In this document: piece by piece, positions 46,437-48,300 of the stretch
Layout: each line of letters opens with the position of its first letter
Position numbering within the stretch: the first letter of the stretch is position 1
IMG/VR virus record: IMGVR_UViG_3300045988_137643
Span: 28,377 to 92,376 of that record
From: a virus
Lineage: Duplodnaviria > Heunggongvirae > Uroviricota > Caudoviricetes
DNA length: 64,000 nt
Reading direction: 5' to 3' (one strand)
The notes under the pieces: model-generated
The model's input: the letters and a program-made list of their open reading frames with translations, nothing else
What the model was told of the DNA's origin: nothing
Databases searched by the model: none
Position numbers and translations under genes: made by a program

Positions 46437-46971
46437 ACCGCTGACAGCATACACAATCAACTACCGCTGATAGCATATCGAGAGTCTATCTCACCGCTCA
46501 CAGCATACTTTACTCGATTTTTTTACCGCTGACAGCATACTTAAGACATTGCATGAATAATGTGTACCGGTATGGGTATAACCAGAACAAAATTACCGCT
46601 GGCAGCATACGAAGGTCTGACATATACCATTAATTACCGCTGATAGCATATCCAAACAAAAATTCCTCAATAAAACACCGCTGACAGCATACGTTCTATC
46701 AGGGAGCAGCAGGCAATAAATGCCTTTCACTACAAGCAATCAGCGCAATAGCAATAGAATGTTAGTGAGCGCAAACCTATATGGAATGCACTCTTCGAGG
46801 TTAGTAACCACTGGGGAGGTATGACAGAGCATTGAGTGGTGATAGATGATTTACCGCTCACAGCATACGTTCATCTCACTATACCGCTGGTAGCATATCT
46901 TTAACCGTTCACAGCATACTTTTCAGAAAAATAGCCGCTGATAGCATACATTTCACCGCTGACAACATATC
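46437..46971. repeat. Iteron array, about 12 direct repeats of ACCGCTGACAGCATAC (incA-like, 3' of repA)
   Basis: Twelve 16-bp copies with 1-3 substitutions each, irregular spacing, same orientation. Confidence 0.85.
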
Positions 46972-48064
46972 AAAGCAGTTTGAGACTATTGGAAAGGATC
47001 TCAATCATCTTGATATTTTCAGGCGTCAAATTCTGCGAAAGTTCGGTTATCTTGTTGATAATGTTCTGTTTGGCATCAATTTCCCCAGCTTTCTCATCTG
47101 GTTTTTTGGGTTCGATGTCTTCAGGTTTTGGCGGTGCGACTTTAAGTTTTGGATTGCGGCTGTGAATCTGGATATAGATCGACCGCCCTCGCTTAATCTC
47201 GCTGTATTCGAGATAGCCCAAATCTTGGAGAGCTTTTAAGCCGTTACGTATAGTCTGATTCTGCGAGCTGACATTCCTGCTGCTCAAATTTAGTCGCGCA
47301 CGCAATCGAGCAAGCGATACCGGCGCAGGCTTGGTTGGAAGACTTTCGATGAAGGTGTACAGAGCCTGTGCTGTTTCTTTGCGTGGTAGCTTATTGATGA
47401 CCTTTAACTGCAAAAGAACCTTATGATCAAAGCGATATAGTTCGGCCAGCTTCGGTTCTGCATAGAACACCACCGTATCTTTCTGCTCGTTGTAGTCCAC
47501 ACTATTGATTAGGTGCACCATCAGAAGCGAGATCTTGTTAGAGCCGTCGACGTTCTTTTCTTCATACGTTCTCTGGAAAGACAGAGTTGTACGCATGATC
47601 TTCAAAAGACTGTTTGTAAGCCGGTCGCGGAGTGTTTTGCGGATCTGTGACGATGGATAGCCACAAAACTTCGCAAATTTCGTGATGCTTAACTCGACAC
47701 GACCGTTAGGTTCGCCGTATTCTGCCAGCGAACGCACAACGCCCACCCACGTTTTGAAATCATGATCCATGTCGAGACGAGGACCGGTTATCTTGATATC
47801 GGAATAGCCTTCAGAACGGGCTACTTCGAGCTGAACAAGCTCCTTTGAAGCATCGATCTCATTTGGCTTGTTACGCTTGCTGTATTTTGTCCCCTTGAGC
47901 GTGGGCACGAACAACCCCAGCCGCATCAACGCAATTGGTTGGACTGTATTGTTGCTATTAGGGACAAGTTCCCCTGTGTACAATTCAAGGGAACCTTCTT
48001 CAAAGTTGTCGAGATTATCTTCTACTTCTTTGTTATTTTTACCTTTTTTATTTTTTGTGGACAT
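46970..48064 (-). CDS. repA: RepA-type iteron-binding replication initiator
   Basis: Minus-strand ORF flanked on both sides by iterons; start set at internal Met (MSTKNKKGK) because the track start at 48184 overlaps the upstream iterons. Confidence 0.65.
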   Translation of the reverse strand: MSTKNKKGKNNKEVEDNLDNFEEGSLELYTGELVPNSNNTVQPIALMRLGLFVPTLKGTKYSKRNKPNEIDASKELVQLEVARSEGYSDIKITGPRLDMDHDFKTWVGVVRSLAEYGEPNGRVELSITKFAKFCGYPSSQIRKTLRDRLTNSLLKIMRTTLSFQRTYEEKNVDGSNKISLLMVHLINSVDYNEQKDTVVFYAEPKLAELYRFDHKVLLQLKVINKLPRKETAQALYTFIESLPTKPAPVSLARLRARLNLSSRNVSSQNQTIRNGLKALQDLGYLEYSEIKRGRSIYIQIHSRNPKLKVAPPKPEDIEPKKPDEKAGEIDAKQNIINKITELSQNLTPENIKMIEILSNSLKLL

Positions 48065-48085
48065 GTGGACACCTTTGTCATTCAA

Positions 48086-48186
48086 CCGCTGACAGCATAC
48101 TTGATTTGCCGCTGGCAGCATACCAAAAACAGTTGGCAGCATACGGCGAACCGTTGACAGACTATCAATTACCGCTGGCAGCATAC
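48086..48186. repeat. Five iterons upstream of repA (incC-like)
   Basis: Copies of (A/G)CCGCTG(A/G)CAGCATAC in the repA promoter region. Confidence 0.8.
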
Positions 48187-48219
48187 ATGAACATGGCTTC
48201 AGACCAGTCGTGGCGCGGC

Positions 48220-48300
48220 TTACAGCGATCGGGGATCTTATTTGATCTATACAAGGATCTATCTATGGATCTCTTTATTAGGATCTATCCTGTGGATATG
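48220..48300. promoter_or_regulatory. Origin-like region: six GATC sites in about 75 bp plus a DnaA-box-like TGTGGATAT
   Basis: CGATCGGGGATCTTATTTGATCTATACAAGGATCTATCTATGGATCTCTTTATTAGGATCTATCCTGTGGATATG adjacent to iterons, matching the P1 oriR layout as recalled. Confidence 0.6.

Follow-up and report, generated by a model that had tools for sequence, protein, structure and literature searches.

Introduction

Low-copy replicons that carry their initiator gene, repA, between two groups of iterons are known from phage P1, which lives as a phage-plasmid, and from RepFIB replicons, both those of IncF plasmids (P307, F, pO157) and those of P1-like phages whose RepA is of RepFIB type (RCS47), where repA is likewise flanked by origin iterons upstream and control iterons downstream. 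P1 replication reportedly depends on DNA methylation, and the lytic replication of P1 uses a separate lytic replicon. In FIB replicons the effective part is the downstream iterons, and this block alone displaces the replicon, which fits handcuffing (PMC11983097). Phage-plasmids of the SSU5-like group occur widely in E. coli, Shigella, E. albertii and Klebsiella, and CTX-M-15 and other resistance genes are present on some of them. For pECOH89, the genes repA, dam, parA, parB, dnaE and nrdAB have been reported, with a RepA identical to that of p09EL50 and 48% identical to that of pLF82 (PMC3999498); for the IncpKPHS1 replicon, only four iterons downstream of repA have been reported (PMC6735626). 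Published descriptions of SSU5/pKPHS1/pECOH89-type replicons are shallow.

Here we describe a replicon in a 64-kb stretch of DNA (64,000 nucleotides; hereafter the window) that covers part of an element of about 110 kb. We put the probability at about 85% that an SSU5-like E. coli phage-plasmid of the pECOH89/p09EL50 type has its plasmid-prophage replicon at positions 46398-48307, and that this replicon belongs to the P1 oriR/RepFIB family and works as other members do. The replicon is real but ordinary, of the known P1 oriR/RepFIB kind, with a RepA homologue, five phased iterons, tandem DnaA boxes, GATC heptamers and a downstream array all in place. The P1/RepFIB family gains a well-resolved member with it, and no new question is opened; its base-level map offers targets for incompatibility-based curing cassettes and is an aid to copy-number studies and to correct annotation.

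The RepA Initiator

The features of the replicon are collected in Table 1. The initial annotation had described an incC-repA-incA layout like that of P1, leaving unstated that repA lies on the minus strand.

Table 1. Features of the replicon and the phage dam gene, in window coordinates.
Feature	Position	Strand	Remarks
Terminator-like palindromic hairpin	46398..46421		9-bp stem, 6 G-C pairs; scored on both strands
Distal control iterons (incA-like), n = 7	46438..46691	-	Spacing 26/30/32/70/41/41 bp; oriented as origin iterons
Iteron-free spacer, 162 bp	46692..46853		Separates distal and proximal iteron blocks
Proximal control iterons, n = 5	46854..46969	-	Spacing 30/21/30/21 bp; final copy abuts repA stop codon
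repA	46970..48064	- (48064..46970)	Rep_3-family initiator, 364 aa; predicted to bind iterons; most likely coordinates
Iteron-like sequence within repA	47709..47731	+	Inverted relative to every other iteron
Two TGTCCACA repeats	48056..48072	-	Overlap repA start codon; weakly DnaA-box-like, 2 mismatches each
Origin iterons (incC-like), n = 5	48084..48188	-	Phasing 23/21/21/21 bp
GC-rich box GCCGCGCCACG	48209..48219	-	Between iterons and GATC repeats
Six GATC sites	48227..48285		Starts 48227, 48234, 48244, 48256, 48268, 48282; 59 bp
Tandem DnaA boxes, n = 2	48291..48307	-	Outer origin edge
Phage-type N6-adenine DNA methyltransferase (Dam)	63420..64000	+	193 of 197 codons; cut by window end

RepA matches the Pfam family PF01051 (Rep3_N; E = 3.9e-9) and phrog_775 (E = 5e-133), and its residues 32-309 align with P1 and P7 RepA at 43.5% identity (tblastn, E = 2e-64). 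Identity reaches 85% with the Klebsiella pKPHS1-type protein, 48% with the SSU5 and Cyrano proteins and 41% with RepFIB-type RepA; the precise Cyrano value, 47.9%, agrees with the 48% published for pECOH89 and pLF82. By alignment, the window RepA is a true homologue of P1 RepA, beyond mere resemblance. A multiple alignment places the core (residues 32-309) between a Lys-rich N-terminal extension of about 30 residues and a C-terminal one of about 55, both of which are common to the Klebsiella and SSU5 relatives and missing from P1 and RepFIB-type RepA. A phmmer search of PDB sequences with RepA returned no match at E ≤ 1, and NCBIfam held no match for RepA or for the neighbouring 214-aa ORF.

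Some GenBank records of this plasmid type name the gene "repFIB replication protein A," and the PlasmidFinder list includes a type IncFIB(H89-PhagePlasmid), which, judging from its name only, would be the type of the window RepA. In RefSeq records the RepA start codon is over-extended. The iteron-like sequence inside repA shares 18 of 19 positions with origin iteron 3 and the adjoining flank (48134-48152); this 19-mer was considered as a conserved regulatory site and dropped, nucleotide conservation being absent in the Klebsiella homologue.

Iterons on Both Sides of repA

A search with the motif CCGCTGACAGCATA, allowing up to three mismatches, located 17 iterons in 46438-48185, every copy on the + strand. 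Five lie upstream of repA, with motif starts at 48086, 48109, 48130, 48151 and 48172, and 12 downstream, seven of them in the distal block (46438, 46464, 46494, 46526, 46596, 46637 and 46678) and five in the proximal one (46854, 46884, 46905, 46935 and 46956), in agreement with the five and about twelve counted in the initial annotation. Across the 64 kb the motif has 23 matches against 4.5 ± 2 expected, a number reached by none of 100 shuffles, and on this result chance was rejected as the origin of the iterons. With three mismatches each, two of the upstream copies are degenerate, though in register; the copies of the distal block carry 0-1 mismatch each. The 12 downstream iterons point, without exception, in the same direction as those of the origin.

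The complete downstream array is present in 120 of 122 matching plasmids, with 97.5-99.7% identity among the matches listed. Phage PhiR41_1, a phage-collection record with E. coli K-12 MG1655 entered as host, is without three distal-block iterons, and one phage record labels the iterons attL/attR. Neither an RNA family nor a conserved ORF was found in the spacer between the blocks; an Rfam scan of 45500-48800 at E ≤ 1 likewise gave no RNA family, and there is therefore no sign of antisense-RNA control or of a spacer RNA. The hairpin separates the first iteron from the + strand genes upstream, and it probably protects both the array and the convergent repA against transcriptional read-through.

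The Origin Core

Next to the origin iterons, the cluster of six GATC sites that had been pointed out earlier is indeed present and is the only such cluster in the window, where the runner-up has three sites. Five of the six sites fall within (A/T)AGATC(C/A) heptamer-like repeats. Under a Poisson model, about 0.05 clusters of this kind would be expected in 64 kb, and chance was rejected here as well. The cluster is predicted to comprise Dam-methylation and SeqA-binding sites and probably forms the strand-opening region. At the outer edge, the DnaA-box-like sequence of the initial annotation was also recovered, not as a single box but as two in tandem: on the repA-sense strand, 48291-48299 reads ATATCCACA and 48299-48307 reads TTATTCACA, each with one mismatch to TTATCCACA. 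At the place of the weaker repeats by the repA start, relatives have a repA-proximal DnaA box, namely GTATCCACA in Klebsiella, CTATCCACA in P1 and TTATCCACA in JK004. P1 and the Klebsiella relative have the GC-rich box unchanged; it reads GCCGCGCCGT in RCS47 and is more diverged in JK004 and SSU5.

A consensus promoter scan of the minus strand within the iterons flagged no repA promoter. A candidate below the scan threshold lies inside the origin iterons, with a -35 element TTGGTA (48126-48121) and a -10 element AAGTAT (48102-48097) separated by an 18-nt spacer; it is weak, matching the consensus at four of six and three of six positions, and sits, relative to the iterons, where the annotated P1 PrepA does. 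Through this alignment to P1 only, TTGGTA-18-AAGTAT is the probable repA promoter.

With P1 features taken from the GenBank annotation of AF234172, P1 oriR could be aligned base for base to the origin core, which comprises the DnaA boxes, the GATC heptamers and the GC-rich box. Each of the five Dam sites annotated in P1 falls on a GATC of the window, and the tandem DnaA boxes align with the annotated P1 DnaA-binding site. Judged from the alignment, the window origin is a homologue of P1 oriR, and the P1-like layout first suggested for the locus holds feature by feature. A six-replicon alignment revealed the same origin core in the window, Klebsiella pJN2-26, SSU5, Cronobacter JK004, P1 and RCS47. 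Common to these replicons are five iterons at 21-23 bp, 3-6 GATC sites and, some 100 bp away from the iterons, tandem DnaA boxes; in six of six, a downstream array starts at the repA stop codon. The comparison shows a conserved module in the origin core and divergence in the iterons and in the specificity of RepA.

The whole 2.1-kb replicon occurs in 118 plasmid records at about 98-99% identity, typed as rep_cluster_488 and non-mobilizable, and the origin core alone in 1,782 enterobacterial plasmid records. The window itself is about 98-99% identical to about 120 sequenced plasmids, among which the replicon is a shared constant, 62-kb deletion derivatives included. Near 39-41.6 kb, a RecA-like gene was considered as the site of an intein or homing endonuclease; it appears as two separate ORFs in the window, unlike in the reference plasmid, and the idea was set aside as extraneous to the replicon.

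A Model of Replication Control

The following steps are inferred from P1 and RepFIB by homology. RepA monomers would bind the five origin iterons and, together with host DnaA at the flanking boxes, open the GATC-heptamer region, upon which the host replisome would be recruited. RepA bound at the origin would cover its own promoter and so repress itself. The downstream array would titrate RepA and pair with the origin iterons by handcuffing, giving low copy number and incompatibility; because all of its iterons are co-oriented, the pairing geometry could differ from that of P1. Firing would require host Dam methylation of the GATC cluster, and SeqA would sequester the hemimethylated sites after each round. 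Genes for a DnaE, a DnaB-like helicase and a primase are present on the element itself, so that RepA may recruit either the host replisome or that of the element.

The Phage Dam and Alternative Readings

The phage-type Dam gene placed at 63420 by the initial annotation is substantiated by PF05869 (132 bits, cut-off 28; E = 2e-38) and TIGR01712 (114 bits, cut-off 97), and the catalytic motif NPPY appears in the translation as FLNPPYS. The gene is outside the replicon. It shares 39% identity with Stx-phage Dam-family genes, among which we presume M.EcoVT2Dam to be. Such identity appears too distant for a confident transfer of GATC specificity to the window Dam from M.EcoVT2Dam, for which a GATC target has been reported (PMC6602927).

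In the initial annotation, this methylase was suggested to gate the origin and to render replication partly independent of host Dam, a proposal that found no support. That Dam is made during the plasmid state and acts on the six-GATC origin, so that firing and re-firing escape host Dam at least in part, is very unlikely in our assessment, even though the gene looks complete, its product has the Stx-phage relatives just mentioned and the window origin has one GATC more than that of P1. A sigma-70-like promoter match with a TG (TTGCCA-17-AAAAAT, 63362-63390) also lies just upstream of dam, which could therefore be transcribed alone. Against this, the gene lies 15 kb from the origin, inside a same-strand block of nucleotide-metabolism and replication genes, and the GATC specificity of its product is only predicted. 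An on-board Dam is within the known picture because P1 itself encodes the GATC methylase Dmt and likewise combines it with a GATC origin; the same GATC-rich core, moreover, recurs across the 1,782 plasmids. To our knowledge, the hosts of the SSU5-like phage-plasmid family are all Dam+. Derivatives without dam retain an unchanged origin: the 62-kb plasmids of E. albertii keep window positions 44861-52111, with a RepA 100% identical and the six GATC sites, and a tblastn search of them for a dam homologue found none (best E = 1.6). In these plasmids dam is dispensable; that it lacks any effect does not follow. Most likely, the element's Dam is a lytic-phase function, protecting the genome or keeping pace with rapid replication, and is most likely unnecessary for plasmid maintenance, although it may have a modulating role during induction. 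That Dam comes on together with the lytic DNA-metabolism genes, rapidly re-methylates the six-GATC origin and ends SeqA sequestration, so that RepA/oriR passes from firing once per cycle as a plasmid to firing repeatedly for the element's replisome, strikes us as highly improbable; if true, it would amount to an element-encoded epigenetic switch between plasmid and lytic modes of replication.

A related question is whether oriR/RepA is also, or mainly, where the replisome of the element (DnaE, DnaB-like helicase and primase) enters during lytic growth, which would make it a dual-use origin and not one for the plasmid mode alone. The replicon does lie in a block of phage genes for DNA replication and nucleotide metabolism (SbcCD-like, NrdAB, ThyA, DHFR, exonucleases, RNase HI, DnaE, ligase, helicase and primase), the extensions of RepA are specific to the SSU5 group, and neither a second Rep gene nor another origin-like repeat cluster was noticed within the 64-kb window; that view, however, takes in 64 kb of about 110 kb. 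Low-copy iteron control fits runaway replication poorly unless overridden, and P1 keeps its lytic replicon separate, so that we hold a dual-use origin to be unlikely. Nor do we give much credence to a role outside copy control for the distal seven-iteron block (46438-46691), for instance as a pairing or partition-like site or as a relic. Its spacing of 26-70 bp is wider and more irregular than that of the proximal block, PhiR41_1 does without three of its seven iterons, the Klebsiella relatives have only eight downstream iterons in all, and no parABS adjoins the array as it does in P1. Yet its sequences are bona fide iterons, with at most one mismatch, the full array is retained in nearly every matching plasmid, the spacing in P1 incA is also 31-41 bp, and these plasmids reportedly have parA and parB at another location (PMC3999498). 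We consider such a role scarcely probable, and copy control by a P1 oriR/RepFIB-type replicon remains our reading of the locus.

Comparison with Known Replicons

The window and P1 are alike in having five origin iterons at about 21-bp phasing (22/21/21/21 in P1), a control array that begins at the repA stop codon (P1 incA iteron 9 abuts the stop) and a GATC-family methylase encoded by the phage-plasmid itself. They differ in iteron sequence (GTATGCTGYCAGCGG in the window, ATGTGTGCTGGAGGG in P1), in the number of origin GATC sites (six versus five), in the leader before the repA start (20 bp versus 57 bp) and in the length of RepA (364 versus 286 aa). The 12 downstream iterons of the window share one orientation, whereas the nine of P1 comprise three co-oriented and six inverted copies. 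Arrays with both orientations also occur in JK004 (3 + 5) and RCS47 (2 co-oriented + 4 inverted) and are absent from the window; the mixed-orientation array is a detail of P1 architecture and does not define the family. Directly beyond the control array P1 has parA-parB-parS, while the window array is flanked by small + strand ORFs with no assigned function. The methylases differ too, the window having a small T1/VT2-type Dam far from the origin and P1 a large bifunctional Dmt at 3.8 kb, behind the C1-repressor operator Odmt.

RepFIB replicons and RCS47 have the same origin-core module as the window with a different iteron sequence, and their RepA is without the C-terminal extension of the window protein. 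Closest are the members of the same element family, SSU5/pHCM2, Klebsiella pKPHS1 (IncpKPHS1) and pECOH89/p09EL50. Among these, SSU5 departs from the window in its iteron, in the mixed orientation of its array, in having only three GATC sites in the origin core and in an additional iteron cluster beyond the DnaA boxes. The Klebsiella type has the same iteron sequence as the window, matches its origin geometry to the base and likewise carries a co-oriented array downstream of repA; it differs in having eight iterons there instead of 12 and, in pJN2-26, a gap between the blocks of about 74 bp as against 162 bp.

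Identity and Distribution of the Element

The 2.1-kb replicon region matches 118 plasmid records at 98-99% identity over its full length, mostly non-mobilizable plasmids of ~110 kb assigned to rep_cluster_488 in E. coli, Shigella and E. albertii, along with the phage records PhiR41_1 and CMS-2020a. The E. coli O104:H4 plasmid p09EL50 is among these matches. The window RepA is 47.9% identical to that of phage Cyrano, which we take to be the pLF82 element. For pECOH89, RepA is reported to match p09EL50 RepA exactly and pLF82 RepA at 48% identity, and the shared genes listed for pECOH89 include dam, parA, parB, dnaE, rnhA and nrdAB (PMC3999498). 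Given these identities and the p09EL50 match, we assign the window to the SSU5-like phage-plasmids, type pECOH89/p09EL50. Judging by its name, the PlasmidFinder replicon type IncFIB(H89-PhagePlasmid), used in 25 papers, would correspond to the window RepA. The replicon is a catalogued and very common type, the fine anatomy of which has earlier been described only superficially.

The neighborhood is mostly one long block of + strand genes, encoding SbcD/SbcC-like proteins, NrdAB, a MazG-like protein, ThyA, DHFR, exonucleases, Dam and RNase HI and, further along, a DnaB-like helicase, primase, ligase and DnaE, with repA as the only gene on the minus strand there. Elsewhere, window positions 39226-41563 hold two separate ORFs, one of 331 aa and the other, of 357 aa, a RecA-like ATPase. 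The reference plasmid NZ_CP027369.1 has one CDS of 2,340 nt in their place, labelled a LAGLIDADG homing endonuclease (RecA-like per PhiR41_1), a difference that may reflect an intein/homing-endonuclease insertion polymorphism or a mapping offset.

Organization of repA and Its Iterons

Scanning for the iteron motif CCGCTGACAGCATA with up to 3 mismatches returned 17 matches between 46438 and 48185, on the + strand every time, and 23 in the whole 64-kb window against 4.5 +/- 2 expected, a number reached in 0 of 100 shuffles. The five upstream and about twelve downstream iterons proposed in the initial annotation are thereby borne out. Two of the five upstream copies are degenerate, both in register, and all 12 downstream iterons share the orientation of the origin iterons. 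A terminator-like hairpin preceding the array probably stops read-through from + strand genes.

Features of the replicon and the dam gene (window coordinates)
Feature	Position	Strand	Description
Terminator-like palindromic hairpin	46398-46421		16 bp before first iteron
Distal downstream block	46438-46691	+	Seven iterons
Gap separating the two downstream blocks			162 bp
Proximal downstream block	46854-46969	+	Five iterons, ending at repA stop codon
repA	48064..46970	minus	Sole long ORF in 46437-48300; 364 aa, MSTKNKKGK...
Upstream iterons	48086, 48109, 48130, 48151, 48172	+	Spacing 23/21/21/21 bp
Six GATC sites	48227-48285		59 bp, beyond upstream iterons
Two tandem DnaA-box 9-mers	48291-48299 and 48299-48307		One mismatch each to TTATCCACA
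dam	from 63420	+	PF05869 E 2e-38; TIGR01712 114 bits; NPPY motif; window end cuts four codons

The whole 12-iteron array is kept in 120 of 122 matching plasmids. Iteron number nevertheless varies: phage PhiR41_1 has 9 downstream iterons, not 12 (L002 3139-3582 vs window 46438-46969), with ~88 bp holding three distal iterons absent. This loss presumably arose by recombination between repeats, and PhiR41_1 would be a natural copy-control variant.

RefSeq/PGAP places the RepA start at 48184 (404 aa; 46970-48184; e.g., NZ_CP027369.1), reading across all five origin iterons. We instead favor the start at 48064, because homology of relatives begins only at residue 11-32, a Shine-Dalgarno-like AAAGGTG lies directly upstream of this ATG, and the resulting 364-aa start is the one used in the PhiR41_1 and E. 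albertii records. The protein carries a Rep3_N domain and is 85% identical to Klebsiella pKPHS1-type RepA, 48% to SSU5 RepA and 41% to the RepFIB-type RepA of RCS47-like phages. Its Lys-rich N-terminal and ~55-aa C-terminal extensions are common to the SSU5 and Klebsiella types and are lacking in P1 and RepFIB RepA.

Within the repA coding region, an inverted iteron-like sequence (47709-47731, encoding SLAEYGEP) agrees at 18 of 19 positions with origin iteron 3 and the non-iteron flank beside it (48134-48152), far above chance for a 2-kb region. Since several positions differ in the Klebsiella homologue, it may have arisen in a recent event akin to gene conversion and not be a conserved RepA site.

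The Origin Core and a Proposed Replication Mechanism

The six-GATC cluster described initially is the densest of the window, the runner-up holding three sites; by chance, 64 kb should hold about 0.05 clusters of this kind, and the window-wide GATC count is unremarkable (277 observed vs 245 expected). The DnaA-box-like sequence noted beside it resolves into two tandem 9-mers. Where relatives have a repA-proximal DnaA box, the window has only a pair of weak repeats, TGTCCACA x2, overlapping the repA ATG. The best repA promoter candidate, TTGGTA-18-AAGTAT at iteron junctions 2/3 and 1/2, is weak and falls below detection in a promoter scan, and its position exactly matches the annotated P1 PrepA.

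By analogy with P1 and RepFIB, RepA monomers would fill the five origin iterons and host DnaA would bind the outer boxes, with opening of the GATC-heptamer region. Iteron-bound RepA would also repress its own promoter, for which TTGGTA-18-AAGTAT is the best candidate. SeqA reportedly plays a role at the P1 origin, according to work by Brendler, Abeles and Austin. The downstream array would bind RepA and pair with the origin iterons (handcuffing), conferring low copy number and incompatibility; in FIB replicons, the downstream iteron block alone displaces the replicon (PMC11983097). For P1 oriR, titles cited in PMC2865523 speak of an adenine methylation requirement and of two levels of control by methylation. 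Because the GATC positions are conserved and lie 7-14 bp apart, the window origin would likely depend on Dam and SeqA as P1 does.

Adjoining the DnaA-box end of the origin is a 214-aa ORF with several cysteines (48386-49030, +; phrog_2105), for which no Pfam or NCBIfam match was found. In SSU5 (SSU5_070) and Klebsiella pJN2-26, a hypothetical ORF of 645 nt, running opposite to repA, likewise lies on the origin side, and from size and position we assume it to be equivalent to the 214-aa ORF. Its fixed place beside the origin may be meaningful.

Does the Element's Dam Gate Its Origin?

The phage-type Dam gene called at 63420 is upheld by its family matches and NPPY motif. Outside the SSU5 group, its nearest relatives are Dam-family genes of Vibrio/Yersinia phages (~41%) and Stx/Shigella phages (39%). 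GATC is the reported target of M.EcoVT2Dam (PMC6602927), so the same specificity is a plausible prediction for the window enzyme.

The further proposal, that this Dam is specially linked to the origin and gates the element's own replication, is unsupported. A sigma-70-like match directly upstream of dam could be read in its favor, but the gene and the origin are 15 kb apart, with dam lying among the DNA-metabolism genes, and well over a thousand enterobacterial plasmids share the GATC-rich core (by blastn, the origin core occurs in 1,782 plasmid records from Escherichia, Klebsiella, Salmonella, Enterobacter, Yersinia and others). Nor is the combination of GATC origin and own methylase new, since P1 already pairs its Dam-dependent oriR with the GATC methylase Dmt, 3.8 kb away; there, the C1 operator Odmt overlaps the Dmt promoter, and expression appears to be repressor-controlled. 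The proposal is also partly contradicted by several records of 62-64-kb E. albertii plasmids from different isolates, which retain window positions 44861-52111, including all six GATC sites and a RepA of 100% identity. In the one such plasmid assembled, p3RM15116 (CP043239.1), tblastn found no Dam homologue (best E = 1.6). The element's Dam is therefore dispensable for maintenance.

Plasmids of the p3RM15116 (62,266 bp) type, from wild birds and other sources, are deletion derivatives of the phage-plasmid. Ten megablast matches, covering 44861-52111 and parts of 14454-42779, add up to ~34 kb of shared window sequence. All beyond 52111 is missing (nrdAB, thyA, dam and more), and genes of chromosomal type (metG, apbC, hdeAB) have been acquired together with toxin-antitoxin modules.

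Comparison with P1 and Other Relatives

The P1-like reading of the replicon was right, and on sequence evidence the resemblance is one of homology. RepA shares 43.5% identity with P1 and P7 RepA (residues 32-309, E 2e-64), and the origin core, aligned with the annotated P1 record, is roughly three-quarters identical at the nucleotide level, with a conserved order of TTAT(T/C)CACA-TATCCAC, AGATCC heptamers and GCCGCGCCACG. Each of the five Dam sites annotated in P1 aligns to a window GATC; at the sixth, P1 has AGGTCC and most relatives AGATCC. The geometry matches as well, with five origin iterons at ~21-bp phasing, a control array starting at the repA stop codon, and 103 bp (100 bp in P1) from the DnaA boxes to the outermost iteron. 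However, the iteron sequences differ, the last origin iterons lie 20 bp from the start codon as opposed to 57 bp in P1, and the parABS found beyond the P1 control array does not follow the window's.

The downstream arrays diverge further. P1 has nine iterons (three co-oriented and six inverted), Cronobacter JK004 3 + 5 and RCS47 2 + 4 in the same sense, and SSU5 a mixed-orientation array, whereas the eight of Klebsiella pJN2-26 are all co-oriented as in the window, with an origin geometry identical to the base. Four iterons have been reported downstream of repA in the Klebsiella sister group (PMC6735626). In the pJN2-26 record (MZ779062.1), the 20-bp "phage attachment site attR/attL" labels at 1378-1397 and 2648-2667 coincide with RepA iterons flanking repA; automated prediction of prophage boundaries almost certainly produced them in error. 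In SSU5, about five further iterons form a cluster at 2392-2499, past the DnaA boxes on the origin's far side, and the core holds only three GATC sites; the SSU5-type replicon is thus organized differently despite its RepA identity.

The residual novelty of the replicon lies partly in its uniformly oriented 12-iteron array and, for the rest, in a possible modulating role of Dam on induction, e.g., overriding sequestration during lytic growth. Overall, these sequences depict an origin-core module conserved in P1, pJN2-26, SSU5, JK004 and RCS47, combined with RepA/iteron pairs that have diverged in specificity.
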